Notes: generated from the letters alone by a model not told the origin. A stretch of 64,000 nt of DNA from a virus (IMGVR_UViG_3300050156_000193:1-64000); one strand, 5' to 3'. Positions 15,627-57,804 are shown, counted from the stretch's first letter. Numbers and translations are program-made.

Positions 15627-16235
15627 TCAGCTCAGAATAAACGCTGTAAAAGGATCCATACTGTCCCTAGCTGCGCCTGCAGACTTCCCCATCTTCCAAG
15701 GCTGTTCACTTGCGCTGGCAACCTTGGTTAACGTCGAATCCGGAAGCGCCATAAGAGCTTGAAGGTCAGCAGCCGTGAAGTCTCCGCTCTGGGCCAACTT
15801 GGAGATTTGATCAGGCATTTCTACCGGGGCGTTCTCCAATGCTGACTCTAGGCTAGCAACCTTTTCAAGAAGTTCTTGAATCTCTGCTTTGGCTTGTTCC
15901 AGCTGGGAAGCTTGCTTTTCCAGCTCGGTTACTTCACTGGCAACCTTCGTCAAGAAGTTAGCTAAAACCTCTTCATCAGTAGGTTGAGCTTTGAATTCGG
16001 CAAGGTCAGAAATCTTAATACCTGCAACCTTGATCATCGCCAAGGCTGAATCGTAGTCGATACCCTGGGACACCAAGCCGGACGCAGCTTCCTTTTCCAT
16101 CAAGCTTTGAGCAACCTCGATTCGAGCTTGGTTTTCATCTAGACCAGCTTGCTTTAGCATTTGCACAGCGGTGTATTCCATTGATTGACTGAGAATACTC
16201 TCAGCCTTTTTTAGTAAAGTCGTTGAAGTTTTCAC
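15627..16235 (-). CDS. Head/scaffold-like protein with multiple KxA motifs
   Basis: KKAE, KQAG, KEAA, KVAS, KQAS; shares a QGIDYDSA module with the 637 aa protein. Confidence 0.6.
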   Translation of the reverse strand: MKTSTTLLKKAESILSQSMEYTAVQMLKQAGLDENQARIEVAQSLMEKEAASGLVSQGIDYDSALAMIKVAGIKISDLAEFKAQPTDEEVLANFLTKVASEVTELEKQASQLEQAKAEIQELLEKVASLESALENAPVEMPDQISKLAQSGDFTAADLQALMALPDSTLTKVASASEQPWKMGKSAGAARDSMDPFTAFILS

Positions 16236-16690: not shown

Positions 16691-18604
16691 TTAGCCTCCA
16701 AACAGCTCCTGAGACTTGGCATTCACCAATTCCACAGCTTGGTCAAAGTCAACGCCCAGGTCCATCAGACCAGCAACGGCAGCTTGCTTTTGTTGGCCAA
16801 GAGCCTTATTAGCAGCATACCCAGCACCTGCACCAATAGCAAGCTTCTTACCTAGACCCATGCCTGGCTTAGCCAGCTTAGCGACACCAGCGGCTGCAGG
16901 GGTGGTCAGTGCACGGCCTGTAAGCTTTTGTCCAGCGTTGAGAACTTCGCCGATCAGGGCAGCCTTCTTTTCATTTCGAGCGTAGCGTTCGTTGGCTTGG
17001 TTTTTAAGGGACTCCACGACTCCGTGGCCCAGGCCAAGTGTCCCCCCTAATAAATTACCCCCGGTAACTGCAGCACTATGGCTAATTCTCCCTCTTGAGA
17101 GAAGTGATAATCCACCCCCTGTCATCCCTCCCACCAGTGCCCCTCCCAAGGATTCGGCAACACCTCTGCCGGTAGCGCGAAGGCTCCCTACGACATTTTC
17201 TTTAGCCCTCCGCCCAATACCGGAGTTCTCTCCGCCGGTCTTATCATCAATATGCCGATTCATCCCTGCAGGAGAAAATATCCCCCTAGCCACATCTGAG
17301 GCCCCAGCGCTAGCCTTCTTCACCAGCTCCACGGCATCTTCATAATCCATACCCTGCTCAACCAAGCCAGTCACATAAGCAACCTTGACCTGATTAGGCA
17401 CAGCATGGTCTTCAACCATACCTTCCTTATCAGCAATACCAGATACATTCACCTGATCCCCGCCAGCAGCACCTTGAGCCAGAGCATCTTGAATGATGGC
17501 ATCAAACACTTCATTCATAGTACCGGTAGGCCGCAGGCCGTCAGAGGTAGGCATAGGCTTGATAACGGCATCACTCTCGGCCACAATTTGGGCGTTAGCG
17601 ACTTGAGCCTTATTCGGCACAGCGCCAGGGGCAATACCAGTGGAGGAAGTGAGGTCTTCGGCAGAAGCTTGCTTGACCATTTCCACGGCAGAATCAAAGT
17701 CCACGCCACCTTCAATCAAAGTCTGCAGATAAGCGGCCTTTGTCAGAGTAGCGTCTTCTTCCGCAATCTCAGCTTCAGCTTGCTTCACCATCTCCACCGC
17801 TTGATCAAAGTCAATACCTTGTTCGATCAGGCTAGCCATGGCAGCAGCCTTTTCCATCTCATCGGCAATCTCAGCTTCAGCTTGCTTCACCAGTTCCACG
17901 GCATCGCCAAAGTCTACGCCTTGAGCAACCAGATGCGCAACTGCAGCAGCCTTTTCCACGCCAACTTGATTAGGAACGGCATGGTCTTCGACGTTACCTT
18001 CCTTATCGGCAATACCTGTCTCGTTCACCTGATCCACACCAGCGGCACCTTGAGCCAGAGCGTCTTGAATGATAGCGTCAAACACTTCATTCAGCGTACC
18101 AGTGGGGCGTAGGCCATCCGAAGTAGGCATAGGCTTCACCACAGCATCAGTCTCAGCGACCATTTGGGCATTAGCAACTTGGGCCTTATTAGGCACGGCG
18201 CCTGGAGCGATACCATTCGAAGAAGTGAGGTCTTCGGTGGAAGCCTTCTTCAGAAGAGCTTGGGCCAGGGCTTGTCCGGCAGTAGAGGCTTGCTTATTCA
18301 TAGGGGTTTCAGGGGTGTTGAGTTGTAGAGCTGCAATCTTTTCAAAGACTTCACGGGCCAGGGCGGCGCCAGCTTCCGATGCTGACTTCTCTTGGCCCTT
18401 CTCCTTATCTTCGTCGTCTTCCTTGGGTGACTTTTCTCCGTCTTCGTCGTCGCCCTTCTTTTCCTTATCTTCAGACTCCTTTTCCTTCAGGAAAGCAGGC
18501 TTACCCTTTTCCTTGTCGTCTGATTCGTCCTTTTCTGCCTCGGCAGCCGACTTTTCCAGATTACCTTGAAGTTCGGCCAGGAGCTTGTCTAGGGTGAGAT
18601 CCAT
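16691..18604 (-). CDS. Scaffold/internal head protein with internal duplications
   Basis: Acidic and Lys-rich N-terminus, five G.DF..AV..VK.A modules, 94-aa duplication; lies between protease and capsid genes. Confidence 0.6.
   Translation of the reverse strand: MDLTLDKLLAELQGNLEKSAAEAEKDESDDKEKGKPAFLKEKESEDKEKKGDDEDGEKSPKEDDEDKEKGQEKSASEAGAALAREVFEKIAALQLNTPETPMNKQASTAGQALAQALLKKASTEDLTSSNGIAPGAVPNKAQVANAQMVAETDAVVKPMPTSDGLRPTGTLNEVFDAIIQDALAQGAAGVDQVNETGIADKEGNVEDHAVPNQVGVEKAAAVAHLVAQGVDFGDAVELVKQAEAEIADEMEKAAAMASLIEQGIDFDQAVEMVKQAEAEIAEEDATLTKAAYLQTLIEGGVDFDSAVEMVKQASAEDLTSSTGIAPGAVPNKAQVANAQIVAESDAVIKPMPTSDGLRPTGTMNEVFDAIIQDALAQGAAGGDQVNVSGIADKEGMVEDHAVPNQVKVAYVTGLVEQGMDYEDAVELVKKASAGASDVARGIFSPAGMNRHIDDKTGGENSGIGRRAKENVVGSLRATGRGVAESLGGALVGGMTGGGLSLLSRGRISHSAAVTGGNLLGGTLGLGHGVVESLKNQANERYARNEKKAALIGEVLNAGQKLTGRALTTPAAAGVAKLAKPGMGLGKKLAIGAGAGYAANKALGQQKQAAVAGLMDLGVDFDQAVELVNAKSQELFGG
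17387..18244 (-). repeat. 282-bp imperfect intragenic duplication (17963-18244 and 17387-17668)
   Basis: ASTEDLTSSNGIAPGAVPNK...HAVPNQV versus ASAEDLTSSTGIAPGAVPNK...HAVPNQV. Confidence 0.9.
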
Positions 18605-25219: not shown

Positions 25220-26023
25220 TTAACAGCAGCAGCCAGGGGCAGAGACTTTGCCCAGGCCAGGGTCAGGATTGCTTGGTCCGGAAGAAGACGCTACTTGAAT
25301 AGTAGAGTCTCGGATTGCAGGAGAGCTTCCATTTGCAGTTTTGTAAATAGCACCCCCTACTATGCTTGAGGCATAGGCCTCAGGAGTCATGCCGTTTCTA
25401 TCTGACTTACCCAACCCTAGATAGGCGGCAATAGCTGCTGTGATTTTCGAAGGAAAGGCTCGGTTATAAGAGTCTCCATTCACCCGGTACGCACCATTTT
25501 TGAAAGATACTGCTCGATACTTTCCTTCGAGGATAACCAAACCTGCCAAGATTGCCTTGTGCATGTTTGCCTCTCCTAAGACATGACCTAGAAGATCTTG
25601 ACCTGGTGCAACACAGAGCTGAGGTGCAAGGTCTGGTCTCAGTCTTTCAATCTCACAGCTCCCGGAGGGAGATCCTCCTTTGATGAAGTTCCAACCCATC
25701 ACCTGCATTAACCCCACCCCATATAGCCCTTTATTGACGTTATCAATCGCAGTAGCGCTTCCAGAGGAGAAGATGCTTTTGATTGCAGAGCTATTCAGGA
25801 AATGAAACCCTCCAGTCCCAGGAGTTGAAGCTACCTTAGGACCTATGGCGTTGGCGTTATGAGTACTCTCTAATCGGATTTGTGCATTGATGATATTTAC
25901 AATATCCTGCTCCTGACCCAGAGTGCCAGCAAAGTAAGTCTCTACGTGAGACTTAATGATATCCTTGACTTTAGGGATTCTAGAAGCGTCATACCCAATC
26001 TTAGGGGCAGTTCCGATAGTCAT
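25220..26023 (-). CDS. Lytic transglycosylase / lysozyme-fold protein (likely virion-associated)
   Basis: Catalytic LEST.N.NA and GLMQVMG motifs; coupled to the RNAP beta-prime C-terminal gene (TGATG). Confidence 0.7.
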   Translation of the reverse strand: MTIGTAPKIGYDASRIPKVKDIIKSHVETYFAGTLGQEQDIVNIINAQIRLESTHNANAIGPKVASTPGTGGFHFLNSSAIKSIFSSGSATAIDNVNKGLYGVGLMQVMGWNFIKGGSPSGSCEIERLRPDLAPQLCVAPGQDLLGHVLGEANMHKAILAGLVILEGKYRAVSFKNGAYRVNGDSYNRAFPSKITAAIAAYLGLGKSDRNGMTPEAYASSIVGGAIYKTANGSSPAIRDSTIQVASSSGPSNPDPGLGKVSAPGCCC

Positions 26024-27849
26024 CAGTACTTTCCTTCTTGACCTTCTCCAAACTCATTACCAAACATGTAGCTGGTAATAGGGTCTGTGCTATGAACATG
26101 GCTCTCTGAGTGAGTTGCAGCACTCTCTTTCAAGGAATCGCGCAGGCGCGAAAAGCTAAGTTTCGAAACCCAGTCTTTATCTAGCATCTTGGCAGTCTGC
26201 AGCCCGGGAACGATAGGCTTAACCTTAAGTCCTGTAGACGAGATCGGCACCATTTTAACCCCCAAGTCCTTTAGATCTTGAATATGGTTCCCATCTAAGA
26301 GCGTACCTGGGACCAGAGCCCCCACCCCCTTGGACAAAATGCTGCCCTCTGCATGATTGACCCCAACTTCCTTGGAGCCTTTATCTAGGTATTTACGGAT
26401 GGTATTGATCTCTACCTTATCCCCGGGAAGGAGCCCGGTTGCACCAGGGTGTTCGACTTCGACGTACTTGAGAAGATTCTTAGAGATGATTTCAAAATGC
26501 CTAGGGTCCAAACCTCCTCCATAGATATTACGGAGTTCGTTTGATATATACTCTCGCCCTGCACCAATGCCTCGAATACTCACTAGCTTTCTAGGATTTA
26601 CTGTTCCAGTAGATAACTGATCCCCCATTCTAATAGTATCACCAGGTTTTACGGAGACCCTTTGCTCGATAGGGACAAAGTGAGACTTTTCATTGATAAA
26701 AACCACAGAGTCTCCTAGCGGAGTTTTCTTAACATCGGTAACTTTACCGTTGATAGATGCAATAGTAGCTTCATCTTTGAAGTTATCAGATGGGTTATTC
26801 AGCAAGTTTGCAGCCTGCTCGTAAGCATTCCCCTTGCGCTCCCCCACGGTAGCCTTGTGCTTTGTACTCAGCATGCTTTGAGTCAGGACTTCAGACACTG
26901 ACTGTGCTGCAATAACTCCTACGTTGGTTCCGATTTCAGGTAGATGCCCGGAAGCCATTAGACCGAAGCAATGCTGACACACCCCTTCTTTTGCCTCGCA
27001 AGTCATTGCGCTTCTGACTTTTAGCTTCTTCTTCCCTGCATGAGAAGCATCTCTGATAGCAGCTTCGTCTACCAAGTGATTAGTGTCGGCAGAGTATCGA
27101 CCAAGAAGACTCTTAGTATCGGTTACGTCTACGAAAATACCATTATGAGTCCCGCAATCTTGAACGGTAATAACTTCATGGAATACCGTAGGGGAAAGCT
27201 TTTTGAACAAAGCTCCGGGCAAGGCAGTACTCAGTTGGCTCATCACAGTAGATCCTCGACCCATGTAGCTAAGAGCTATGTGTTCCGCAGGGCGCATGCC
27301 TTCCGCAAAACTCCGCTCAATCACTACTGGAATTAGCTCCCCCTTAACGTTCAAAGACATTAGGGGGGTAGAGGTTCCACTAGCCAACTGGGCAGGGTTT
27401 CCTCGGGCACCGGTCTTTGCCATCTTGGCAGCAGTAGAGTTCTTTGATAGGAGGTAATCTAGGTTCTGTTTTTCGATCTTCTTGTTATAGCCCCCGGTAA
27501 GCTCTGCCAGTTCTTGGTTCTTAACGGGCTTAGTTCTATCTGACATCATGATACGTTGTACCTTGGTGTCGTATTCCCTGATAATGGCTTGGCGCTCATC
27601 ACTATCATTGATATAGTCAGATAGGGGGGTAGACGCCCCAATCTCAGTTGCAGTATTGAAGAATAGACGCCCTAAGTCATTGATATGGTGAACCGCATTT
27701 GGGCCACCGTTTTTCAATAGGTTGTTGACCACCTTAGAGACGCCTGCTTTGTCCAAAGGGTTGTGGATATCAAAAGCTTTCTTAGAAGCTTCTGTAGGCA
27801 TTGAATGCTTTAGAAGTAGGGCGCCTGCAGTAGTAATCTTATCGGACAT
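26023..27849 (-). CDS. rpoC: Phage multisubunit RNA polymerase, beta-prime C-terminal part
   Basis: GARGN, SFAEG, DCGT, VRS..TC...GVC..CFG, VGVIAAQSVSE.LTQ, HFEII..NLL. Confidence 0.9.
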   Translation of the reverse strand: MSDKITTAGALLLKHSMPTEASKKAFDIHNPLDKAGVSKVVNNLLKNGGPNAVHHINDLGRLFFNTATEIGASTPLSDYINDSDERQAIIREYDTKVQRIMMSDRTKPVKNQELAELTGGYNKKIEKQNLDYLLSKNSTAAKMAKTGARGNPAQLASGTSTPLMSLNVKGELIPVVIERSFAEGMRPAEHIALSYMGRGSTVMSQLSTALPGALFKKLSPTVFHEVITVQDCGTHNGIFVDVTDTKSLLGRYSADTNHLVDEAAIRDASHAGKKKLKVRSAMTCEAKEGVCQHCFGLMASGHLPEIGTNVGVIAAQSVSEVLTQSMLSTKHKATVGERKGNAYEQAANLLNNPSDNFKDEATIASINGKVTDVKKTPLGDSVVFINEKSHFVPIEQRVSVKPGDTIRMGDQLSTGTVNPRKLVSIRGIGAGREYISNELRNIYGGGLDPRHFEIISKNLLKYVEVEHPGATGLLPGDKVEINTIRKYLDKGSKEVGVNHAEGSILSKGVGALVPGTLLDGNHIQDLKDLGVKMVPISSTGLKVKPIVPGLQTAKMLDKDWVSKLSFSRLRDSLKESAATHSESHVHSTDPITSYMFGNEFGEGQEGKY

Positions 27850-27941
27850 GGGTCTATTTTATCCGATTTAGAAGAATGCGTCTACTTGATAAAGCAGCTA
27901 CCTAAGGTTGGTAACGGTTTGCTTTCAGCCCTAGTTGTAAA

Positions 27942-27976
27942 TTCCCAAATCTGCCGTTTCTTGGTATAAGAATAGT
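27942..27976 (+). promoter_or_regulatory. Early-type promoter motif, copy 4
   Basis: TAGTTGTAAA-TTCCCA-N17-TATAAGAATAGT. Confidence 0.7.
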
Positions 27977-28002
27977 ACCGAAACCTAGTTCATAGACCGA
28001 AA

Positions 28003-29652
28003 GTGACCATGTCGACCCCTACTCCACTTAATATCCCCCCTTTGGTTATTATAGCTCGGGAGCCAATCCTTCTTGAACCAATACCCCCCACCCTGGTTCG
28101 AATCAACCCTACTTCTGAACTTGCTTCCATCCCGGTACCTACCTCCCCTCCAGTCTCTATAGAGGCTCCCCCTGAAGTGCCCGCCTCCCTGGCAGAGATC
28201 CCAGAATTAGTCCCTAAGGTAAATGCACCTAGGCTCAAAACTAAAAAAGCCGTGCCTGCACCCGTAGAAATTACTACTGCAACTGAGGAAGTAGGAGAGG
28301 CTCTTACTTACCCAGTAAAAACCCCGTTCCAACGGGCTATCCGGAGACTTGGTAACTCCTCTTCATATAAGAAAGCCATTTCCCCTGTCTTTGCGGATAT
28401 TCGTAGTAAAAAGGAGTACCTGACTATAACTCAGTTTGATCCTCTATCAACGGAGTTTCAGGAATCCTTTAACACTGCCTGGGATGCTGATAAACGATCC
28501 CGCACTCAAGCTTTCGGGGACCCGAAACAGCTCGCAGGCTTTTATCGCCGAGGCGGGGGTACCCTCTCCTCTCCTAATGGAGTACCAAGGAATTTCCCTG
28601 CTTTGCCAAATCAGAAAGGCACTAGAGAGTACCCTCTGGATTTGTCCCTAATAACTGATCAAAACCCAATTTCTCATTTCCAGGAAGCCCTTTGGGTAGA
28701 TGTTCCAAGTAAGTGTACTGAGGCTCAGGTTGTAGAATTGGCAATACTCAAAGTAACAGGGTCTCCTGGCCAAGGAAACGACGTAGATCTCTCAAGCCTA
28801 CTGGTCAATATATACTCTGCAGGAGAAGGGATCTGTGCAATCACCTTCTTCAAAATTGCGCACGCAGAGGGGAGAACTTACGCAGCCATGAGACCCGTGT
28901 CCCTTCATACAGTATGGGTTCTACCGTACTACGAAGATTCGGGGTTGACCACAGAACCCTTCTTTTTGAACGGAGGGATAGTCTTCGCGTACAAGACCTT
29001 AGCGTTTCGGGAGCTGGGTCTCAAGCTAAACCTAGACGGGACAGTTCAAGCAGTCGTCCCAGACCTTGTGAATACTGGTCAGTTAAAACTAACTGACGTG
29101 CGTAAAAATCCTCGAAGGATGACTCTACCGATGTTTCCAGATGTCGTAGCGAGCGCCTCCGGGGCCAGGGCTTCTTCTATAAACCGATGGTATGGAGAAA
29201 TGGCTTTTAGTAGTGAGTACTTTCCTTTCTACGTAACAGGGGCAACTGTCTCTCCTGATCATATCTATTCCTCCGGTCAGGTGAGACGATATCCTCTTCA
29301 GCCTAGCAGGTTGGGGGTGTTTACCCCGCCCACCACGTCTATGAGGCTACAGTACGCTCTTTGGCATAAATGCATTGTCCAAGGAGGGGGGAAACATACG
29401 GAGTATAGTGTGTATGTGAGCGGTTTTACGAAAAGACAAGCTTTTCTTAAAGCCATGACTCCCTGTCTTTTGGACTTCATGCCTGAACGGCAAGAGGTCT
29501 GGAAAGAGATCCAGAGCAGGAAAACTCTCAGTCAATTCAATGCTGAACGGATAAAGCTGAATCTACCCCTGATTACGAGAGTAGATCAATTGCAAACAGA
29601 AGCTCAGCGATTGAACTTCTTATCTATTGACCGGACATCTCTACCCGGTTAA
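28003..29652 (+). CDS. Hypothetical protein with Pro-rich N-terminus
   Basis: 549 aa ORF directly after the promoter motif. Confidence 0.7.
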   Translation: MTMSTPTPLNIPPLVIIAREPILLEPIPPTLVRINPTSELASIPVPTSPPVSIEAPPEVPASLAEIPELVPKVNAPRLKTKKAVPAPVEITTATEEVGEALTYPVKTPFQRAIRRLGNSSSYKKAISPVFADIRSKKEYLTITQFDPLSTEFQESFNTAWDADKRSRTQAFGDPKQLAGFYRRGGGTLSSPNGVPRNFPALPNQKGTREYPLDLSLITDQNPISHFQEALWVDVPSKCTEAQVVELAILKVTGSPGQGNDVDLSSLLVNIYSAGEGICAITFFKIAHAEGRTYAAMRPVSLHTVWVLPYYEDSGLTTEPFFLNGGIVFAYKTLAFRELGLKLNLDGTVQAVVPDLVNTGQLKLTDVRKNPRRMTLPMFPDVVASASGARASSINRWYGEMAFSSEYFPFYVTGATVSPDHIYSSGQVRRYPLQPSRLGVFTPPTTSMRLQYALWHKCIVQGGGKHTEYSVYVSGFTKRQAFLKAMTPCLLDFMPERQEVWKEIQSRKTLSQFNAERIKLNLPLITRVDQLQTEAQRLNFLSIDRTSLPG

Positions 29653-29692
29653 AATCCAAGAAGAAACCAGGTTAAAATCCAAGAAGAAACCA
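29647..29692. repeat. 23-bp perfect tandem duplication GGTTAAAATCCAAGAAGAAACCA
   Basis: 29647-29669 and 29670-29692. Confidence 0.95.
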
Positions 29693-29713
29693 GGTTCTAA
29701 ACCTGGTTTTTTT
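29687..29713. terminator. Intrinsic terminator
   Basis: AAACCAGG-TTCTAAA-CCTGGTTTTTTT. Confidence 0.75.
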
Positions 29714-29737
29714 AGATTAATCGACCCCCGACCTTCC

Positions 29738-30712
29738 ATGCCTAATCCGTATCTTCTCAAAATTGCTGAAGCCTTTTTCCATACGACGGGGGAGGACAGC
29801 CTTAGGCGCATCTTATCTAGTGGAAAAATTAAAACACTCTCACATGTGGCGAGAGAAAACCCCGAAGAGCCTATTTCAGTGGAGGTAGGGCTCCTCCCTT
29901 TTAGAAGAGAGGTACTACCTGCGGCAAAGGCTGTAGAGGTCATGTCCGCCAGGAAAATAACAGATAAAGTATTTTTAACGCGAGGAAAATACTTACCTAC
30001 ATATGGGGAATACGTTATAAAAAAAGAGCTAACCCTCCCTATTAAAAGGGTATCTTTAAACTCCATTCCAGAAGAATTTATATCAAGTAGGGTACTATCT
30101 ACTAATACTAATAGCGAGATCTTTGTACCTGAATCCAAAGTTTCGACTTTTCAACAAGAATACCCCAGCTTGAAGGTATATTCGAATAAGAACATCCCTG
30201 CATTTTCTCTGCTTGATCGGGTCAAGAACTACCCGACCAAAGTAAAAGATGTATTGTTTGCGAAAGCAGCCGAGCTTAACGTCAAGCGCATCTCAAACAA
30301 CGCCCTTCTAGCAGGAAGTCAAGGCTTAGGTATTAATGTTGATGCCTCTGATCTGGATGTCTTTATCCCCTACAAGTCTAAATACCAATTTGAAAAAAAT
30401 ATAGAAAGATTACTTTCTCAGTATCCAGGTTTAAAGCCTGGAGAATTCTCGAAAAATAAAGAATCCAAAAGAGTGTTATCTGGCAGCATTGACGGGGTGG
30501 ACGTAGATCTGGCGGTAGCATACGGGCAAAAAGCCCAAGCGTTTAAAAATGCTTTTCTAAAAGCTAAAGACGCACTATCGGAACAGGAGAAGGCAGAGAT
30601 CATTAAAAAGAAAACAGAGCTAAAAAATTCATGGGTATTCCCGGAAACTAGGTATAAAATGTACAAAAATCAAGTTGCAGAAAACTTAGGCCTTAAACAA
30701 ACCTACTTCTAA
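29738..30712 (+). CDS. Two-domain protein: putative ADP-ribosyltransferase-like N-terminal domain + Pol-beta-type nucleotidyltransferase (start revised)
   Basis: MPNPYLLKIA tag; FHTT..SL..IL.SG and VFLT; AGSQGLG....SDLDV plus DVDL. Confidence 0.55.
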   Translation: MPNPYLLKIAEAFFHTTGEDSLRRILSSGKIKTLSHVARENPEEPISVEVGLLPFRREVLPAAKAVEVMSARKITDKVFLTRGKYLPTYGEYVIKKELTLPIKRVSLNSIPEEFISSRVLSTNTNSEIFVPESKVSTFQQEYPSLKVYSNKNIPAFSLLDRVKNYPTKVKDVLFAKAAELNVKRISNNALLAGSQGLGINVDASDLDVFIPYKSKYQFEKNIERLLSQYPGLKPGEFSKNKESKRVLSGSIDGVDVDLAVAYGQKAQAFKNAFLKAKDALSEQEKAEIIKKKTELKNSWVFPETRYKMYKNQVAENLGLKQTYF

Positions 30713-32217
30713 TGAACCCCTATATTCTCAAAATTGCCAAGCAAATTCTCAAAGATACGGAAAAGGTCCCTGAAAAAAGGGGGGTCTCCGGCAAAGGGCC
30801 TCTTCGTCCGAACCAGGAAGAAGCCTTGTCTAAGCTAGATAAGAGCCATGGGCTACTACTACACCACAGCACTGGTAGTGGGAAGACCGTAACCTTTCTA
30901 ACTGCTGCCCAACGAGCTTTGGAAAAGGATAAGACTGGCCGGGCATTGCTAGTAGCCCCTGCAAGCTTAGTTTCTAACATTGATAAAGAGTTGGATAAGC
31001 ATGGCATCAAATTGGATAGAAGTCGGTTAGATGTTATGTCTTACGAAAAGGCAGTGAATCGTTCAGAAGAACTAAAGAAAAATAAGTATGCAATTGCCAT
31101 CCTTGATGAAGCTCAGAAAGTTCGAAATAGTGACACAAAACGCACTCAGATACTGGGGGATATTGTTTCCAAGGCAGACAACCGAGTTTTGGCAACTGCT
31201 ACCGCAAACTACAACCATGTTGCTGACCTAGCACCTATTATGAATATGGTGGCAGGTCATGAAGTTTTGCCAAAAGACAAGAGAGCGTTTGAAAAGAGGT
31301 TCACTCAGACTTCTAAGAAACCTCAAGGTATCCTTGATAGGATTCTTCGCAAACCCCAAGAAGAGGAAACTTCTTTAAAGGGGCAGAAAGAGCTGGGCAA
31401 GCTTTTTAAAGAGCACGTCCATTACTATGATGCTAGTGAAGATAAGAGCGTTCAGGACAAATTTCCCAAGACTACTGAAAAGACCATTGAAGTAGATATG
31501 TCCCCGGAACAGAAGCGGATGTACTCTTATATGGAAGGTCAACTCCCCTCTCTTCTGAAAATGAAAGTCCGCCACGGAATGCCTCTGGACAAACAAGAAA
31601 AGGCTCAGTTGAACTCTTTCTCTGCCGGTGTTAGACAGGTGTCAAATTCTCATCGTCACCTCTCCCAAACTCCAGACAAGGTCGCATATACTCCAAAAAT
31701 TGAAGCTGCGGTGAAAAGCCTTAAAGAGCGTGCAGGAAGCGATAAGAACTTCAGGGGATTGGTGTATTCTAACTACCTAGACGCCGGGGTGTATGAGTAT
31801 GCGAAGAAGTTAAAAGAAGAAGGTATTTCTCATCATATCTACACCGGGGGGCTTTCTAAGTCGGAGAAAGACGCCATGGTTAAAGACTACAATGAGGGTA
31901 AGGTAAAAGCCTTGCTAATCTCTTCTTCAGGTGCAGAAGGGTTGGATCTAAAAGGAACTAAGCTAACTCAAGTCCTAGACCCCCACTTTAACCCAAGTAA
32001 GATCAAGCAGGTAATCGGCCGTGGATCTAGATATGAAAGCCATGCTCACTTGCCTGAAAATGAGAGGACTCATGAAGTAGAGCACTACCTTTCTACTTTG
32101 CCTAAAAACCTGATGGGTAAGGCTCCGATGAGCATCGATAAATACCTGCATGAGAACTCTGGGGAAAAGCAGGTGATGTTTGATCAGTTAAAAGAAGTGA
32201 TGAAAAAGAGTAACTAG
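30712..32217 (+). CDS. SNF2/SF2 helicase with NPYILKIA N-terminal tag
   Basis: HSTGSGKT, DEAQ, TAT, GAEGLDL, QVIGRGSR. Confidence 0.85.
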   Translation: MNPYILKIAKQILKDTEKVPEKRGVSGKGPLRPNQEEALSKLDKSHGLLLHHSTGSGKTVTFLTAAQRALEKDKTGRALLVAPASLVSNIDKELDKHGIKLDRSRLDVMSYEKAVNRSEELKKNKYAIAILDEAQKVRNSDTKRTQILGDIVSKADNRVLATATANYNHVADLAPIMNMVAGHEVLPKDKRAFEKRFTQTSKKPQGILDRILRKPQEEETSLKGQKELGKLFKEHVHYYDASEDKSVQDKFPKTTEKTIEVDMSPEQKRMYSYMEGQLPSLLKMKVRHGMPLDKQEKAQLNSFSAGVRQVSNSHRHLSQTPDKVAYTPKIEAAVKSLKERAGSDKNFRGLVYSNYLDAGVYEYAKKLKEEGISHHIYTGGLSKSEKDAMVKDYNEGKVKALLISSSGAEGLDLKGTKLTQVLDPHFNPSKIKQVIGRGSRYESHAHLPENERTHEVEHYLSTLPKNLMGKAPMSIDKYLHENSGEKQVMFDQLKEVMKKSN

Positions 32218-32369
32218 TGCAATTTCTTAATTTAATCCTGAAAGATACGACGATTACGATAACAGTCTTTTGTGTCCTCATAGCAACAATTCTAGTGTTC
32301 TTCCAAGACTGAATCTAAAGCGTCACCCCCTAGGCGCTTTTTTTTAGTTAGATATGAGTTAGTTGTAAA

Positions 32370-32398
32370 TTCAACATTTTGCAAGAACGTGGTATAAG
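32370..32398 (+). promoter_or_regulatory. Early-type promoter motif, copy 5
   Basis: TTAGTTGTAAATTCAAC-N17-TATAAG; 40 bp nearly identical to the copy at 58298. Confidence 0.75.
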
Positions 32399-32457
32399 GG
32401 GGTTGTAAATAGAATCCTTTCTATTTAGCCGAGTTTCCCCCAACTGAAAGGCTCTTA

Positions 32458-33729
32458 ATGACCACGTTTTTCGCTCAGTCCGGTTCCACTTTTTCAATTC
32501 AGAACGACCTGAACTCTGTTATTCACGACAAACTTCCTGCTGGAAATTACGCCGTAAAACAAAATCCTATGACAGGTGCTTTTTATTTAGAAAGCACTGA
32601 GAACTTTGAAGCCCCCGGCAAGATTTATGGGGACCCAATTCGTTACGCCAATCGCATTCTGAACACATTTCAGGATAAAAATAAGAGCTTAGGCACTCTC
32701 CTGGCAGGAGAGAAGGGTTCTGGGAAAAGCATGCTGTGCAGGGAAATCTGTCGACTTGGGTATGCATTGGAGTACCCAACCTTGATTATCACCAGCCCAA
32801 TGCGAGGGGATGGATTCTTTCAATTTCTGCATGCCATCTCTCAGCCCACCATCGTTTTCTTCGATGAGTTTGAGAAGGTCTACGACCGAGACGAGCAGCA
32901 GGGTTTGCTGACCTTGCTGGATGGAGTGTTCCCTTCCAAGAAGCTTTGGCTCTTGACCTGCAACGATAAGTGGCGGCTGGATTCTCACATGCGGAATCGA
33001 CCTGGCCGAATTCACTATATGATCGAATTCCAAGGCTTAGATATGGCATTCATCAAAGAGTACTGCGAAGATCGCCTGGACGACAAAACCCAGATCGACG
33101 GGGTCCTTTCCGCCTTGAGCATTTTCCATACAGTAAACTTCGATACCTTACAGGCACTAGTATCGGAAATGAATTTGTACAAAGAATCTGCTTTGGATTC
33201 TCTTGAGCTGCTTAACGCACGCCCGGATAGTGACGATAAGAACGCTTATTCAGTCAGCTTGGTGCATCAGGCTACCGGCATTACTTGGGGGGATGCCCCT
33301 GGTCAGGGCGAGGGGAAGTCCTTTTCTATGGACGGTAGTAGGATTGACAAATCGCCTTTGCATTTGCAAAATCACTTCGTCCAGTTCTATAATGTAGATC
33401 TGGACGATTTGGCGAAAGCAGGGAAAACCTTCGAACAAGTTAAAGAGTTGGCTGCAAGTTGTGGGCTATTGACTGAACAGCTTTTGGAAAGTGAGGGGCT
33501 TTTCTATAAGCTGCAATCTGGTGTGAAGCTGACTGACGAAGAGGAAGATCTGAAGTACCTTAAAGCATTCCGAAATAAGAGTATCAGCCTTAGCAGTAAA
33601 GACCTCCTTGGCGCTGACCTTGAAGCTGGGGTGTTTGAATTCAAAGCCGATCCAGGGTTTGTTATCAAGGTAAAGCGCAACGTCTCCCCAGGCCTTTCTA
33701 TTCGGGAAGCAATGGGTCTGCTGGTCTAA
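32458..33729 (+). CDS. AAA+ ATPase
   Basis: Walker A GEKGSGKS, Walker B FFDEFEK, sensor TCN, RPGR. Confidence 0.9.
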   Translation: MTTFFAQSGSTFSIQNDLNSVIHDKLPAGNYAVKQNPMTGAFYLESTENFEAPGKIYGDPIRYANRILNTFQDKNKSLGTLLAGEKGSGKSMLCREICRLGYALEYPTLIITSPMRGDGFFQFLHAISQPTIVFFDEFEKVYDRDEQQGLLTLLDGVFPSKKLWLLTCNDKWRLDSHMRNRPGRIHYMIEFQGLDMAFIKEYCEDRLDDKTQIDGVLSALSIFHTVNFDTLQALVSEMNLYKESALDSLELLNARPDSDDKNAYSVSLVHQATGITWGDAPGQGEGKSFSMDGSRIDKSPLHLQNHFVQFYNVDLDDLAKAGKTFEQVKELAASCGLLTEQLLESEGLFYKLQSGVKLTDEEEDLKYLKAFRNKSISLSSKDLLGADLEAGVFEFKADPGFVIKVKRNVSPGLSIREAMGLLV

Positions 33730-33732
33730 AAA

Positions 33733-33957
33733 ATGACCCTCTCCCGTGTTCGAAAAACCGGGGCAGGGTATTTCTGGGCCGAGGAGGAGAAGGCTCTACT
33801 GACTTCTATTTATAGAACTGGTGGAAGCTTTTCTCTTTCTCGTGCGGTAGAAGCCCTGGCTCCTAAAAGCAGAAGTACCATTGCAGCTCAAGCCAGTCGC
33901 TTGAAGTTGACCGTTCCCAGGCCCAGGAAGACCCTTTCAACCGACGACAAGGATTAG
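33733..33957 (+). CDS. Small Myb/SANT-like HTH protein
   Basis: WAEEEKALL...RSRSTI..QASRL pattern. Confidence 0.45.
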   Translation: MTLSRVRKTGAGYFWAEEEKALLTSIYRTGGSFSLSRAVEALAPKSRSTIAAQASRLKLTVPRPRKTLSTDDKD

Positions 33958-33959
33958 AA

Positions 33960-34223
33960 ATGCTAGCAAATAAAGAAGTCTCAGCTTCGATCTCAGAAGC
34001 ACTTGATGCCTTAGAGGATAGTCTAGGTAGCAACTCGGAGTTTGACGTTGTGGTGATATTTTTGCCCAAAACCATTCGACAAAACGACTCTGACCTCAGA
34101 GAGATCTTAGAAGAAGACCCCCCGCTTCTGGTCTACACCGACAGTGCTCGACTAGAGGAAGCGGAAATGGCTATCAAATCAGAAGCCTATTATCTACACC
34201 AAGAACACGTCCTAGTGGGTTAA
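33960..34223 (+). CDS. Hypothetical acidic protein
   Basis: 87 aa ORF in operon. Confidence 0.55.
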   Translation: MLANKEVSASISEALDALEDSLGSNSEFDVVVIFLPKTIRQNDSDLREILEEDPPLLVYTDSARLEEAEMAIKSEAYYLHQEHVLVG

Positions 34224-34224
34224 C

Positions 34225-34254
34225 AAAAAAACCTAGTCCCCACTAGGTTTTTTT
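34225..34254. terminator. Bidirectional terminator
   Basis: AAAAAAACCTAG-TCCCCA-CTAGGTTTTTTT between convergent genes. Confidence 0.85.
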
Positions 34255-34257
34255 AGC

Positions 34258-35400
34258 TTATCCAATAGTAATAGGAGTGTTCACTTTAATCGCCCCGGAC
34301 TTTAGCGCAGCCAAAGCTTCTTCTTCGGTCTTGAAATGAACCTGTTTTTGCTCATGATCAGGCTCTGTTAAATGCATAGACCCTAGAATAGCTTCATGTC
34401 CAGGGGCTACCAGACTGTTCCCTAAGCCCTTTCGGAAGTCATAGATATGAGACTCTGGTAAGAGCTTCTTCCTAGCTTCGACAATAGCCTCATCCGAAAT
34501 AGGAACATGAACCGTTAACGCATCCCCGTCGTAGTCTCCTGCAAATAGACTCAAGTGAAGAGGGCTTATCCCTAGAGTCTTCCCCGGAATAGGCTTTGGG
34601 TAAGCTGCTGTTACGTTAGACAACATCAAAGTAGGGGCACGGTTTAACAAAATAGGGATTTGCTTGATCAACTTATTATAGCTAGCCTGTGCAGCAGTAG
34701 TCCTGGCAGTAACAGCCTTCTTTGCTTCCGGGTAGGTGTATCCGTTTTTGACCAAGTCTCTAATAATGTGGTACTCGTACATGGTCCATATCATTTCGCT
34801 AGGTACTGCAGCTTCGTTAAAACCTAGATTAGGCTCAGCATAGATTGTAGCTCGACCTGAAAAGTCCTGCTTCTTGGATAGGATCTTGCTTTGAAAGAAG
34901 CCGGTCTTAGGCCCCCCTTCTCCTCCAATCTGTTTCAAGAAACCCTTCAGTCCTTCCCCGCGAGATGAACCCTTGATGGCCTCTCCTACCCCAAAGATAG
35001 CCTTGGCCCCGTTATAGAGATCTCTACGCTCTCCTGCAAGCATGTCATCCCCGAAGAATTCCTTAGCTTCACCGAGCTTGGAATTCACAAGCATATGATC
35101 CTGGTAAAGCTTATTAGCGTCCGGATATTTGATTCTATTCCCGGCCTGTTGAATAGGGGGCCTACAAATCGGGGGAATTACCGGCATATGGTTAATAATG
35201 AAAGACTCTTCCGGCTTAGTCCCAGAGCTATCTAACGCAGCCAAGTACTTGATCTGCTTCACCATATCGTCACGTTTAGCTGCGCTCTTAACTTCGTGAA
35301 TATCCTTCTTCAGCGCCCCCAGCTGTTCCTTAATGTTTACAGCGGAGAGCATATCGTGAAATGCTTGACCTCCAGTAATGATAGAATCTTCGTTTTCCAT
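34258..35400 (-). CDS. rpoC: Phage RNA polymerase, beta-prime central (catalytic) part
   Basis: PVIPP..RP, ILSKKQDFSGR, LLNRAPTL, catalytic AGDYDGD...VHVP. Confidence 0.9.
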   Translation of the reverse strand: MENEDSIITGGQAFHDMLSAVNIKEQLGALKKDIHEVKSAAKRDDMVKQIKYLAALDSSGTKPEESFIINHMPVIPPICRPPIQQAGNRIKYPDANKLYQDHMLVNSKLGEAKEFFGDDMLAGERRDLYNGAKAIFGVGEAIKGSSRGEGLKGFLKQIGGEGGPKTGFFQSKILSKKQDFSGRATIYAEPNLGFNEAAVPSEMIWTMYEYHIIRDLVKNGYTYPEAKKAVTARTTAAQASYNKLIKQIPILLNRAPTLMLSNVTAAYPKPIPGKTLGISPLHLSLFAGDYDGDALTVHVPISDEAIVEARKKLLPESHIYDFRKGLGNSLVAPGHEAILGSMHLTEPDHEQKQVHFKTEEEALAALKSGAIKVNTPITIG

Positions 35401-35437
35401 GGTTCAATTTTAGATAGAAGGGGCCAGAGCCCCTGGG

Positions 35438-38400
35438 TCAATCTTCTTTTTCAGCTTCAACTTCGTCTTCGATCACAGGCCTTGCTTTAAGAGAGTTCAC
35501 TTGGATGGAGCGTAGCTTTTTCCCAGATTCGATATCATGCAAATGAAAGGTGTCCCCTTGCTTCTTAACCCCGATCTTTCCGTAAGCAATCCCTTCGAAT
35601 TCCTTAGTAGATAAACCGAGAATAGACTTGATAGGTCTTTCCATCAAAGGATTGGCAATAGGCTCACTCAGAGAGTAATGCCCCCATTTGTTACCTCTCA
35701 TGCCTCCTAGGATGGCAGGGTCAAACAGGCCTCCCTTTTCCGGCTCCAAGTTCTTTGCGGAAATCATAGAGGGCTCCTTAACCTCGCCATTAGACATAGA
35801 CAGAATATCCTTATCCGTCAAGGGGGACGCCGTCAAGGTTCCATTACTGAGCGTAGTTTTAATCCCTGCAGCGGTCAAGTAATTGATGAACTTTTGAGTT
35901 GCAAAAGTAACCTTAGGCTTTGGCAAAGGTTGACCTGTCAAGAACTTATCCCAGTACTCAGGGCTATTTTCACTCTTAGTGGTGGCAATTTCTTTCAAGT
36001 TCTTTCGGGCATTCGATCCCATCAGGCCTAGCATTTCCATATAACCAACGCTCTTAGACCCCTCTTCTCCACCCTTACTAGGTTGACCGTTAGCATCGTA
36101 GCTTCCTGTATTTCTAGCAGACCAGTTCTGGTCCGAGGTCTTGTAGAGTTTCAGGAAATACTGAGGACCGTTCAGGACTTTGCCTAACACTTTTTGAGTG
36201 GTAGGGTCTACCAGTTCTTCTGAGTCTTGAAGACCGTGGGCTTCCAGTTCCTTTTTTAGCCCGACAACGTTAGAAGCCTTGCTGAAGTTGTGGATTAAGT
36301 AAGGAGTTCCAGTTTTCTTAGCAATCTTTGCAGCAGCAGTTTCCATAAGCTGACCAAGATTCACTCGAGAAGTTACTGATGCAGGATTCAGTAGGATATC
36401 AACCGGCTTACCCTCACCTTTAAGGTAAGGCATTTCATGGTCTTCCAGGATCAGGGATACGATCCCCTTATTGCCGTGAAGGCCGGTCAGCTTGTCCCCA
36501 ACCTCTAGGTGCTTCACAGACCTGATGATAAAACGAACCTGACGGCTTGCTGTATGAGCGTCCACCACCTCTCCGTTTTCTTCATGGTTCCAGGGCTCCA
36601 TAACAAGCCTATAAGGGGTCACCAAGGTCTTATGGAGTCTGCCTAGCATCTTATCCTCAGGAGTCGGCTCCTTGTGTTCTAAGACGGCATATACAGGGTC
36701 CCCATGCTTAAGGATTGCACCCTGCTTAGCAAAGCCTCGATCATCTAAGTTATCAAGCTGCTCGCGGGTGATCTTACCTGGGAAATATCTAGCAATCAGA
36801 GACTTCTTAGGCACAGACATTTCGTTGATTTCGTAGTCAACCTTATAAGCATGGTGACTGGACAAACTCTGAGCTGCGCTTCTGCTAATAACCAATCCGT
36901 CCTCGTGGTTATAACCCTTCCACGGAATGTAAGCTGCATGAAGGTTTCTACCTAAAGCCAAGGTACCGTCTTTAGTGTAGTTACTATCAAACAGGACTGT
37001 TCCAGGCTTAACTCGATCTCCAACTTTCACCAAAGGCTTTTCGTCATCGTGAAAGCCCTTCATATTGAAAGGTAGATTCTTGACAGCTTGGATTGTTTCC
37101 TTTTTACCATCCGGGGTTTGAATAACGACCTTCAATCCGTCCACGGCAGTAATAACCCCCTCCACCGGAGAAGTCGTCCCTACTACGGCTGCAAGCTGTT
37201 TGGCAAAAGAAACCCCATGTTCATTCACTGTTTGAACCAGAGGAGCTTCTCTGTTTACCAAGCTCAATGCTTGGGGGATAGCTTTGCCAGCCATGGTCAA
37301 GCGCCCTGGGTGGTTACTATTCAGGAATGGGACCAGATTAGTGGTCACCGTATACATGTCAGTAGTATCTGCTAACCAATAGTCGATGTCTTTTGCAGGA
37401 CACTTCCCAAGTTCTCCATGTATTTGAGCCTGAACCTCCTTCATTCCATCTTGGTGGGGGAATCCGATGTTCTTTGTCATCATCTCATGGACGCTGAGGA
37501 AATGGTACTTACCAGAGTTATCCTTTACTCGTGAGTAAAGGTTCCCCTCCTCGTCTCTACGTGCAGTCACCGTGAATCGCTGGTCGATACCCGCATGACC
37601 GCTTTCCGGAGTACGGCTAGGGTCAATAATGCCTAAGTGGGACGGGTCAATGTCTCGGGCAGACATCGGTACTCCTCTGTCAGAGGCAATACCCCCCTCT
37701 CCTGCACCCAGTACCGTTACCTTAGCGACGTTTTCAACTGACTCGATAGGGTTGGTTTCTGACGGAGTAGAGACTAGATTACTATCCATCAAGTAATTAG
37801 AGAAGAACTTGTTGAAGGGCTTAGGAACCATACTCCCTTTTAGCTTAGGCTTCAAAGGGTCCATTCGGTCCAATTCACGGACTACTCTACCCTTCACTAG
37901 CTTAACGACCTGATGTTCCTTGGCAAACCGAGTCTTTAAAAAGTCTGGGAGGTTCTGTACTCTCTTGAACTGTAGAGAGTCCCGATTGTCTTCTTGACGT
38001 TTACCAGAGTGAGTATCGACGAGGTTCTTCAAGGAAAGGAGGATGGCGTCGTGATTGACTCCAACCAGAGCCTTACCTAAGGTTGACTGAGTTGTTTGCG
38101 GGTGCAGAGAAGACTCCTCTAGGGACTTCTTTAGTTGCATCGCCATCCCTTCCGGGGAAGCATTTGCTTCTTGCTTAGAAGTGGAAACCATTCTGTGATA
38201 AATATCACTCAAGTACTTGTTTTCTTTACCTTTGACAAAAGCCAGATTATCATTCCACACTTCAGGAGGGACGTAGTTACTAACTTCTTTCGGCCCAATA
38301 CCAAAGACCTTTGTTAATAGCGGGGCTGCAGGAATTTTTGAGCTACCAACTTCTAGGTAAAAGATCCCGGTTTGCGGCTCCAAGGTTAGAGAAAAGCTGC

Positions 38401-38842
38401 GGCCAGTACCCGTGTTAAAGTGGCTCTCCAGCTCCCCAGTGTCCCGAAAGCGGGTGTATACGCCTGGGCGAAGTTGAAGCTGATTTGCAACCGAGTAGTT
38501 GTTCCCCTTGTAGACAAGGGTATGCTTCCCAGTTAAATGAAAAGAGTCCATCAACGTAAAGTCTTGATGGGTATCCAGGACCTTACCGGTGAGCTTATCC
38601 ACTAACTTTAGGTCTGCTTTGATAGGGTAGGTGAGGCTGCGACTCTCCAGGATCGCCTTCTTCTCATCCCCATGTCCAATAGGGTTTCTCTCAGCCCGCA
38701 CATTATCGATCTCTAGGCGAAACTGTTTCCCCTCAATCGGGAATTGATTCTTCAGCCCATGAATCAGAGCGGAGTCGACTCTTTCACTGACTTCATCAGG
38801 AGATGAAAAGATCCGCGTTAGGCTTTCAGCTGAGGTAGGCAT
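35438..38842 (-). CDS. rpoB: Phage RNA polymerase beta subunit fused to the beta-prime N-terminus
   Basis: LALGRN..PWKGYNHED, GDKLTGLHGNKG, NP.SV.SRVNLGQ, GPQYFLKL; C-terminal SPL...I...S.GEV..P...GLFD...WGH is beta-prime region A. Confidence 0.9.
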   Translation of the reverse strand: MPTSAESLTRIFSSPDEVSERVDSALIHGLKNQFPIEGKQFRLEIDNVRAERNPIGHGDEKKAILESRSLTYPIKADLKLVDKLTGKVLDTHQDFTLMDSFHLTGKHTLVYKGNNYSVANQLQLRPGVYTRFRDTGELESHFNTGTGRSFSLTLEPQTGIFYLEVGSSKIPAAPLLTKVFGIGPKEVSNYVPPEVWNDNLAFVKGKENKYLSDIYHRMVSTSKQEANASPEGMAMQLKKSLEESSLHPQTTQSTLGKALVGVNHDAILLSLKNLVDTHSGKRQEDNRDSLQFKRVQNLPDFLKTRFAKEHQVVKLVKGRVVRELDRMDPLKPKLKGSMVPKPFNKFFSNYLMDSNLVSTPSETNPIESVENVAKVTVLGAGEGGIASDRGVPMSARDIDPSHLGIIDPSRTPESGHAGIDQRFTVTARRDEEGNLYSRVKDNSGKYHFLSVHEMMTKNIGFPHQDGMKEVQAQIHGELGKCPAKDIDYWLADTTDMYTVTTNLVPFLNSNHPGRLTMAGKAIPQALSLVNREAPLVQTVNEHGVSFAKQLAAVVGTTSPVEGVITAVDGLKVVIQTPDGKKETIQAVKNLPFNMKGFHDDEKPLVKVGDRVKPGTVLFDSNYTKDGTLALGRNLHAAYIPWKGYNHEDGLVISRSAAQSLSSHHAYKVDYEINEMSVPKKSLIARYFPGKITREQLDNLDDRGFAKQGAILKHGDPVYAVLEHKEPTPEDKMLGRLHKTLVTPYRLVMEPWNHEENGEVVDAHTASRQVRFIIRSVKHLEVGDKLTGLHGNKGIVSLILEDHEMPYLKGEGKPVDILLNPASVTSRVNLGQLMETAAAKIAKKTGTPYLIHNFSKASNVVGLKKELEAHGLQDSEELVDPTTQKVLGKVLNGPQYFLKLYKTSDQNWSARNTGSYDANGQPSKGGEEGSKSVGYMEMLGLMGSNARKNLKEIATTKSENSPEYWDKFLTGQPLPKPKVTFATQKFINYLTAAGIKTTLSNGTLTASPLTDKDILSMSNGEVKEPSMISAKNLEPEKGGLFDPAILGGMRGNKWGHYSLSEPIANPLMERPIKSILGLSTKEFEGIAYGKIGVKKQGDTFHLHDIESGKKLRSIQVNSLKARPVIEDEVEAEKED

Positions 38843-39159
38843 TACTCCGTCTCCTCCATATACTGAATCAAGATCATGAGTTTCTCCATGAAGATAAACT
38901 CCTTTTTACTAAGCACGAATGTCCCTTGGTTACGAATAGCCCGAGTCTCAATCAGCTCCAGCTCTGTAATATCGGAGGGATTGTCCATATCCAATTTCTG
39001 ATATCGAATACGGTAGTTATCCATTGACTTCTCAGTCTTACGCTTTCCCGCCAGGATATCTGGAAGAGCGGCAGGGTCGTTAAAAACAGTGCCCTTTTCA
39101 GGCTTAGCATCCAAGTTAGCAAGCGAAGAGAGTGACGGTGAGTTTAAAGAAGTAGCCAT
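38842..39159 (-). CDS. Hypothetical protein coupled to rpoB (TAATG)
   Basis: 105 aa ORF. Confidence 0.65.
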   Translation of the reverse strand: MATSLNSPSLSSLANLDAKPEKGTVFNDPAALPDILAGKRKTEKSMDNYRIRYQKLDMDNPSDITELELIETRAIRNQGTFVLSKKEFIFMEKLMILIQYMEETE

Positions 39160-57728: not shown

Positions 57729-57804
57729 GCGGTCATAACTCAATTGGTAGAGTACCTGCCTTCCAAGCAGGATGTTGTCGGTTCGAGCCCGACTGGCCGC
57801 TCCA
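57729..57804 (+). tRNA. trnG: tRNA-Gly(TCC)
   Basis: Full cloverleaf, CT-TCC-AA loop, CCA end. Confidence 0.95.

Follow-up and report, generated by a model that had tools for sequence, protein, structure and literature searches.

The locus described here raises two questions: how does a phage come to encode an RNA polymerase (RNAP) of the bacterial type in three pieces with unusual subunit boundaries, and what would such an enzyme do during infection? The stretch analyzed, IMGVR_UViG_3300050156_000193:1-64000 (64,000 nucleotides, hereafter the window), covers the opening 64 kb of an IMG/VR viral contig that measures 72,449 bp and has a CheckV completeness estimate of 39%. Near-identical sequence is present in several leaf-litter metagenomes. 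A megablast search of the locus against phage records gave no match, and the closest cultured relatives, at ~52% protein identity, are Salmonella phage Arash (180.8 kb) and Vibrio phages D69, D148, and D181 (~187 kb). Three genes on the minus strand of the window, P0001, P0002, and P0003 (Table 1), are predicted to encode jointly one bacterial-type RNAP core of an uncultured leaf-litter phage. The explanation of the whole that we consider best, with a probability of roughly three in four, is a derived, three-chain fission variant lacking alpha and omega that would be packaged into the virion and ejected with the DNA. The three-chain form is the most fragmented known version of a large and barely studied family of phage enzymes. 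The novelty in the window is this form and its derived position; the fusion of beta to the start of beta', and the second of the two cuts in beta' (cut 2), are already found in Arash and D69.

Comparison of the three products with cellular subunits revealed the following arrangement: (i) P0001 carries the whole of beta joined end to end to beta' residues ~1-177 (E. coli numbering, taken for the cut positions from a MAFFT alignment with Salmonella beta'), (ii) P0002 carries beta' 177-551, and (iii) P0003 carries beta' from 555 to the end, the three open reading frames (ORFs) totaling 2122 amino acids (aa). The three-piece layout proposed in the first-pass annotation was thus borne out by Pfam, by phmmer searches of PDB sequences, and by MAFFT. 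In P0001, the beta moiety is identified by Pfam RNA_pol_Rpb2_6 (PF00562, E 2.5e-54), by the aligned lysine motif HGNKG of the double-psi beta-barrel (DPBB), and by the match of residues 69-996 to a 1104-aa cyanobacterial beta (E 4.9e-67). The fusion also claimed in that annotation is real: residues 1011-1134 align to the beta' N-terminus, a weak Rpb1_1 match covers residues 1008-1045, and the alignment pairs residues 1011-1049 with Taq beta' 16-54 (E. coli 30-66) before jumping past the Zn ribbon. As a special feature of this phage it did not stand, being family-wide and present in cultured Arash gp206 (1525 aa) and D69 (1527 aa). The missing N-terminal Zn ribbon is a 32-residue deletion common to the whole phage family, and the beta' moiety of P0001 terminates in an acidic tail within a clade-specific loop.

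The remainder of beta' is equally recognizable. P0002 matches Rpb1_2 (PF00623, E 2.4e-16) and E. coli beta' 180-515 in the PDB (E 2e-41 to 2e-43, best 2.2e-43); its AGDYDGD aligns to NADFDGD with 3/3 aspartates of the catalytic triad retained, and it encodes the beta' clamp helices, the sigma-2 docking site. P0003 matches Rpb1_5 (PF04998, E 2.8e-16; PDB E 5e-40) and contains the bridge helix, a trigger loop without the SI3 insertion, and the second Zn site, in which C232, C284, C291, and C294 align to E. coli C814, C888, C895, and C898 and which accounts for four of the six cysteines of the RNAP. The trigger-loop histidine is retained, and the equivalent of Arg933 is serine. Between these two genes, which are separated by a 6.4-kb gap of plus-strand genes, cut 2 falls at beta' ~551/555, directly ahead of the TTVGR motif (572-576). 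The junction quoted in the first-pass annotation, ..NTPITIG / MSDKITTAG.., was correct, as was its placement near but not at the cyanobacterial RpoC1/RpoC2 boundary. Cut 2 lies ~20-35 residues upstream of that boundary: P0003 residue 32 corresponds to RpoC2 residue 14, so that P0003 starts ~18 residues ahead of RpoC2 residue 1, and P0002 ends at gamma ~556-560 of 624-626. The cut is real but not peculiar to the window, being common to cultured Arash and D69 and to most of the best 150 of 1176 metagenomic matches described below.

To place the three-chain form within its family, we searched 1.84 billion representatives with P0002 by phmmer and obtained 1176 matches at E<1e-30. The best 150 of these are all phage-like proteins. 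Read from protein ends only, their layouts are mostly beta::beta'(N+middle) ending at cut 2 (~1450-1520 aa, some with inserts), together with ~25 complete beta::beta' fusions (~2000-2080 aa) and a few stand-alone middle pieces; fully fused single ORFs of 2062-2124 aa were also found on 11 IMG/VR phage contigs. A tree of the beta-to-middle region (51 rows, 1425 columns, leaving out rows >1640 aa and fragments) was built by a quick IQ-TREE search under LG+G4 and rooted on Salmonella and Enterococcus. It separates the phage family from the two bacterial outgroups with a support of 100 in the SH-like approximate likelihood ratio test (SH-aLRT). The one-chain forms make up a basal grade, the two-chain forms one clade (SH-aLRT 100), and six three-chain genomes one clade (SH-aLRT 98) that is sister to Arash, D69, and P0005. 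The approximately unbiased (AU) test rejects a two-chain clade without the three-chain forms (delta lnL 655, p 8e-66). The alignments confirm the homology to RpoB/RpoC claimed earlier, and the tree nests the three-chain clade in the two-chain clade. Because of this nesting, with one-chain forms basal, the three-chain form is the product of a recent gene fission of a two-chain enzyme, itself derived from a single chain; the direction from one to two to three chains depends on the bacterial outgroup rooting. On this rooting, the ancestral form of the family was a single fused beta-beta' chain of ~2060 aa. A recent capture of host rpoBC was considered and rejected because the family sits on a long branch of its own and shares deletions throughout.

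In a tree of the middle region only (113 rows), the 383-aa middle-only P0058 and the 977-aa middle+C protein P0034 are placed elsewhere. Since both begin at the site of the first cut (cut 1) yet branch apart from the three-chain clade, beta' appears to have been cut more than once at ~177. Further layouts were observed among P0012, P0070, P0059, P0138, P0034, and P0091, namely beta'(N+middle) unfused to beta and middle+C fusions; other proteins have their N-terminus within the final ~60 residues of beta and extend through beta'. Some of the layouts among these six proteins may be gene-calling fragments.

The other components of a cellular RNAP were sought by profile searches. Neither alpha (PF01000) nor omega (PF01192) was found in the 72-kb contig or in the complete Arash and D69 genomes, whereas 14/14 control genomes scored, in agreement with the first-pass annotation, which had recognized no such genes in the window. 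One beta' catalytic domain is present in each complete relative, and Arash and D69 therefore have one RNAP set each. The accompanying statement that no sigma gene is recognizable holds for the window itself but not beyond it, as a Sigma70_r2 gene lies ~600 bp past its end; the product is 42% identical to Arash gp196. Arash has a second, virion sigma, gp10, with no homologue in the 72 kb available. The clamp helices of P0002 and the beta flap tip of P0001 are both alignable and are the predicted sigma-docking elements. An SNF2-family helicase encoded in the 6.4-kb spacer, 42% identical to Arash gp217, is a probable RNAP partner and perhaps RapA-like.

Two sequence signals recur along the contig. 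TAWAAT-N6-ATG occurs at 8 sites in the window versus 0.79 expected, and 6 of the 8 coincide with the first codon of long ORFs (9461, 22328, 25150, 27849, 35400 (-), 42667 (+)), none with a Shine-Dalgarno sequence. The ORFs include both free beta' genes and a homologue of the Arash virion protein gp218. The TAAAAT-N6-ATG variant also precedes the middle gene in the related contigs L005 and L007 and the beta'-C gene in L004. Because its spacing to the ATG fits a -10 element, TAWAAT-N6 may start transcripts at the A of the ATG, giving candidate leaderless mRNAs. The second signal, TTCAAY-N14/15-TGGTATAAG, was found at 9 sites, 9/9 on the plus strand, versus 0.17 expected in shuffles. These sites precede non-structural genes and look like phage-specific promoters of the sigma-70 type with an extended -10 element.

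The first-pass annotation had placed the RNAP genes in a late, structural context and proposed that the enzyme is packaged in virions for early transcription. The context is confirmed: the contig carries the tailed-phage hallmarks portal, head protease, and major head protein, the RNAP genes are located in this head module between the three, and the TAWAAT-N6-ATG start signal is common to the free beta' genes and virion genes. Packaging itself draws its support from homology to Arash (52.6% identity), in whose virions mass spectrometry assigned 3516 spectra to Gp206, the fused beta, the highest count of all proteins (1333 for the major capsid protein) and with 100% coverage, as well as 1210 to Gp216 (beta'-C), 1148 to the Gp217 helicase, and 467 to sigma Gp10 (PMC10585845). 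By analogy, the window enzyme is probably carried inside the virus particle. Under this reading, the three chains would assemble after late expression, and the covalent beta-beta'N tether may stand in for the alpha-dimer scaffold. The enzyme would be packed into the head with a phage sigma and the SNF2 helicase, as in Arash, and ejected with the DNA, starting phage transcription from the TTCAAY-N14/15-TGGTATAAG promoters. Transcription would then do without host RNAP, and rifampicin would probably not block it. Pocket positions of P0001 are substituted (Q513S, D516S, H526N, and S531T, in E. coli numbering), which predicts that the enzyme is probably insensitive to the drug.

Tentatively, a single alpha-less core and two phage sigmas could run the entire infection without host RNAP, although we hold this to be doubtful. 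A virion sigma of the Arash gp10 type would direct the injected enzyme to the plus-strand TTCAAY-N14/15-TGGTATAAG promoters, and a non-virion sigma of the gp196 type, such as the one encoded on the contig, would switch the core to the TAWAAT-N6-ATG sites, so that virion proteins and the beta' pieces of the enzyme itself would be made from leaderless mRNAs.

Several points weigh against the reading of a packaged fission variant. The position of the root depends on two long-branched bacterial outgroups and a quick search under LG+G4, the groups compared in the AU test were named after the tree had been seen, and the metagenomic 'two-chain' labels come from protein ends, with the partner gene unseen. 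The bridge helix and trigger loop are diverged, as in the serine at the R933 equivalent, so that activity is only assumed. With 39% of the genome available, a second RNAP set or an alpha-like protein may exist in this phage, and no RNA-sequencing run is listed as containing the locus. The case for packaging comes from one relative at ~52% identity, and the Arash authors themselves consider that abundant proteins were possibly carried over with purified virions (PMC10585845).

The last point leads to the alternative that survives best, which we nevertheless consider unlikely: a non-virion enzyme made late or continuously for middle or late transcription, with early genes read by host RNAP, perhaps redirected by a phage sigma. 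The TTCAAY-N14/15-TGGTATAAG sites resemble ordinary sigma-70-type extended -10 promoters and would be usable by a host core with a phage sigma; abundant enzymes might, as the Arash authors allow, merely co-purify with virions (PMC10585845), and spectral counts scale with protein length, Gp206 having 1525 aa. This alternative fits poorly with the excess of Gp206 over the major capsid protein at full coverage (PMC10585845), and with the selective set of partners in Arash virions, where beta'-C, the SNF2 helicase, and one of two sigmas were detected and the second sigma, gp196, is not among the proteins listed in the part of the source available. It also leaves aside the embedding of the RNAP genes in the head module with the virion-gene start signal, and with a functioning host RNAP it is hard to see what an enzyme made late would do at that stage.

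The reading of a three-chain enzyme further requires that cut 1, at beta' ~177, separates two genuine chains. This cut is the only clade-specific feature of the layout. It lies within a clade-specific surface loop, where Thermus beta' has its large insertion (P0002 residue 10 corresponds to Tth 457 and Taq-delta 166), and Arash reads through the site via a short variable linker. Six related IMG/VR contigs (L004, L006-L010; 50-74% identity) have the cut at the matching alignment position, and Logan contigs from two other samples span the junction with 0 differences and 0 gaps. Cut 1 is genuine and conserved within its clade. The spacing of the two genes varies: they overlap by 4 nt in L008-L010, a Shine-Dalgarno sequence precedes the middle gene after a 1.35-kb insert in L004, ~1.7-1.9 kb of other ORFs lie within the spacer in L006 and L007, and the middle gene is detached entirely from the beta gene in L005.

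The short spacer in the window admits a bridging of cut 1 by ribosome bypass of the T4 gene-60 type, which would give an Arash-like two-chain enzyme. Take-off would occur at the GAU before the UGA stop, ~55 nt including a hairpin would be skipped, and landing would be on a matching GAU. Consistent with this, GAAGAT-TGA stands ahead of the gap with the stop directly after the take-off codon, GAAGAT recurs 52 nt on in the P0002 frame, the predicted fold pairs the take-off codon in an extended stem, and the bypassed product would align with the Arash linker. We nevertheless regard bypass as highly improbable. The repeat is likely due to chance because both ends are acidic and of low complexity, and the hairpin (AGGGGC-TCTG-GCCCCT, 35419-35434) is statistically unremarkable (z -1.13). 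P0002 starts at an ATG of its own, in a frame different from that of P0001, with TAAAAT at 35407-35412, precisely 6 nt ahead, and no Shine-Dalgarno sequence, the signal used by five other long ORFs. Relatives keep the two genes 1.3-1.9 kb apart or relocated, and separate chains are therefore the conserved state. Least credible is an assembly or sequencing error, or a recent pseudogenizing mutation in a normally two-chain gene: stop and restart are just 37 nt apart and the frames one base off, but both pieces are full length and conserved, and artefact and pseudogene are excluded because six relatives share the cut and the independent contigs are identical across it.

The three-chain enzyme is closest to the RNAPs of Arash (gp206 + gp216; OQ632216), D69, D148, and D181, with 52.6% identity over beta::beta'N. 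Arash and D69 share with it the beta-beta' fusion, the Zn-ribbon deletion, the xxDYDGD active site, cut 2, the order portal-small ORF-beta, sigma (Arash gp10, gp196) and SNF2 (gp217) partners, and one RNAP set without alpha or omega. They differ in that beta::beta'(1-551) is one chain of 1525-1527 aa, whereas the window phage has 1134 + 380 aa with separate signals. The SNF2 gene of Arash is translationally coupled to beta'-C, whereas that of the window phage lies on the opposite strand within the spacer. The Arash genes are annotated plainly as beta and beta', and the fusion is not discussed (PMC10585845).

The family probably corresponds to the mReC lineage, 'multi-subunit RNAP-encoding Caudovirales', which in Weinheimer & Aylward 2020 (PMC7481178) comprises uncultured tailed-phage contigs, including IMG/VR ones. 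The beta and beta' of mReC align readily with cellular homologues yet form a deep clade of their own; the tree built here separates the phage family from two bacterial outgroups (SH-aLRT 100), and tailed-phage hallmark genes and Pfam-detectable beta and beta' are present on the contig. The three-piece form would not pass the mReC filters, which require subunits of at least 800 aa and an NADxDGD motif, because its catalytic piece has 380 aa and reads AGDYDGD. The IMG/VR identifiers of the relatives are absent from the mReC supplements, and in a term search of the full text of PMC7481178 the wording of fusion, split, sigma, and virion is absent or solely about crAssphage. A literature search on phage beta-beta' fusions found nothing relevant beyond the papers cited here.

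With the phiKZ and AR9 enzymes, one of which is packaged in virions for early transcription, the window RNAP shares the phage multisubunit type without alpha or omega, an associated SNF2-type helicase (PMC7598289, PMC7824862), and a beta' cut after the catalytic DPBB. In the phiKZ type, beta is split in two, two paralogous sets (virion and non-virion) exist, no sigma is recognizable, and the sequences are very divergent; by comparison, the window phage keeps beta in one piece joined to beta'-N, its complete relatives carry a single set, genes of the sigma-70 family occur, and the RNAP matches bacterial RNAP at E 1e-40 to 1e-67. The claim of the first-pass annotation that the splits differ from those of phiKZ-like enzymes failed for cut 2, which is not really different in kind because it falls in the same inter-domain region after the DPBB as the phiKZ/AR9 and cyanobacterial cuts (PMC7598289). 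Like cyanobacterial and plastid RpoC1 (gamma)/RpoC2, the phage beta' is parted between the catalytic domain and the half with bridge helix and trigger loop; the cyanobacterial cut is at E. coli ~585-595 and the phage cut ahead of TTVGR (~551-570). The tree places cut 2 within the phage family, which indicates an origin independent of the cyanobacterial split.

Natural rpoB-rpoC fusions in Helicobacter and Wolbachia and engineered E. coli beta::beta' tethers also join the beta C-terminus to the beta' N-terminus and are active. These are full-size cellular enzymes with alpha2 and omega, whereas the window enzyme is minimal and re-cut at new sites. Bacterial RNAP is normally held to need the alpha dimer for joining beta and beta'; the phage family does without alpha and omega and keeps sigma. 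The natural series from one to two to three chains, plus the independent cuts elsewhere, maps tolerated breakpoints and the contacts sufficient for assembly. Cultured Arash (Salmonella) and D69 (Vibrio) give experimental access to the family, and the minimal enzyme is a compact target for structural work. The family also raises the questions of how a ~240-kDa sigma-dependent enzyme is packed and ejected and of a sigma-switching program of the phage's own.

Table 1. Features of the RNAP locus and associated signals (window coordinates unless marked as contig)
Feature	Coordinates	Strand	Evidence or content
P0003, beta' C-terminal, 608 aa (E. coli beta' ~555-1380)	26023-27849	-	Pfam, PDB
TAAAAT-N6-ATG at P0003 start	27847..27861	-	candidate leaderless-type promoter; no Shine-Dalgarno sequence
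SNF2-family helicase	30712..32217	+	Arash gp217 homologue
Perfect 13-nt inverted repeat, A and T runs flanking	34225..34254	.	between P0002 end and convergent plus-strand module
P0002, beta' middle, 380 aa (E. coli beta' ~177-551)	34258-35400	-	clamp helices, catalytic DPBB
Cut-1 spacer, 37 nt	35401..35437	-	P0001 TGA stop 35438-35440, hairpin, TAAAAT, P0002 ATG
P0001, beta::beta'-N fusion, 1134 aa	35438-38842	-	Pfam, PDB phmmer
beta' N-terminal moiety, P0001 residues 1011-1134 (E. coli beta' ~30-177)	35441..35812	-	alignment
beta moiety, P0001 residues 1 to ~996	35855..38842	-	full-length beta, HGNKG, flap-tip-like helix
Conserved 105-aa ORF	38842..39159	-	between portal and beta genes; stop overlaps P0001 start (TAATG)
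TTCAAY-N14/15-TGGTATAAG sites	1820, 10283, 32370, 43871, 49851, 58309, 59299; contig 64084, 65699	+	motif count
Sigma70_r2 ORF, 328 aa	contig 64592-65578		44.9 bits six-frame; 41.7 bits as called ORF

Upstream, P0001 is predicted to be translationally coupled to the 105-aa ORF downstream of the portal gene, which contains a GGAGGAG Shine-Dalgarno sequence ahead of the P0001 start (GGAGGAG..TAATG). A counterpart of this ORF occupies the same place in L004, L006-L010, Arash (gp205), and D69 (D69_0260). Searches of Pfam, PHROG, and the Atlas gave no usable match for this ORF, which is a candidate accessory factor; the Arash virion proteins listed in the available part of PMC10585845 do not include Gp205.

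Downstream of P0002, the inverted repeat looks like a bidirectional terminator closing the P0002 unit. The plus-strand cargo of the spacer (28003-34223) comprises a 549-aa ORF, a DUF4269 nucleotidyltransferase-like ORF, the SNF2 helicase, an AAA ATPase, and two small ORFs; in relatives, the gap between the middle and C-terminal genes holds unrelated genes or merely ~1 kb and is thus a variable cargo slot. On the far side of P0003, the start of a 267-aa ORF (25220-26023, minus strand) overlaps the beta'-C stop. This ORF is kept after beta'-C in 6/6 three-chain genomes examined (window, L004, L006-L009) and has an invariant E-S pair and a C-terminal PGC motif. By eye, E-S and GLMQV look lysozyme- or SLT-like, but searches of Pfam and PDB gave no match and the AlphaFold model was poor (pLDDT 42).

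Insertions were observed at cut 1 and in the beta gene of relatives. Those at cut 1 look secondary in the three-chain clade because they differ among sister genomes and are missing from L008-L010. In L006 and L007, the cut-1 spacer gave no Rfam match to an intron or ribozyme. In L004, the closest relative, the spacer is occupied by an element (L004 8600-9892) in which a HEARO-like RNA scoring 33 bits lies ahead of a 342-aa RRXRR/IsrB-like ORF. This ORF is 65% identical to an element at 52393-53705 (+) of the window, where a HEARO-like RNA scoring 30.6 bits precedes a 349-aa RRXRR/IsrB-like ORF; both RNAs fall short of the gathering score. In D181 and D148, a group I intron with a homing endonuclease interrupts the beta part; in D181 (L002) it lies at 15533-15813 (RF00028, 100.7 bits), and the record annotates two separate hypothetical proteins. 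A split beta was rejected for these two phages, since a group I intron implies a spliced gene. The intron of D181 and D148 and the HEARO-like element of L004 fit the published proposal that traffic of mobile elements has fragmented phage RNAP genes (PMC7598289).

Elsewhere in the window, four tRNA genes stand in tandem at 57729-58070 (+). Cysteine is depleted in the RNAP (6 in 2122 aa, 0.28%) relative to 23 other ORFs (1.21%), and it is missing altogether from the SNF2 helicase, the 361-aa DUF4269 protein (29627-30712), and a 637-aa head-module protein (16691-18604).

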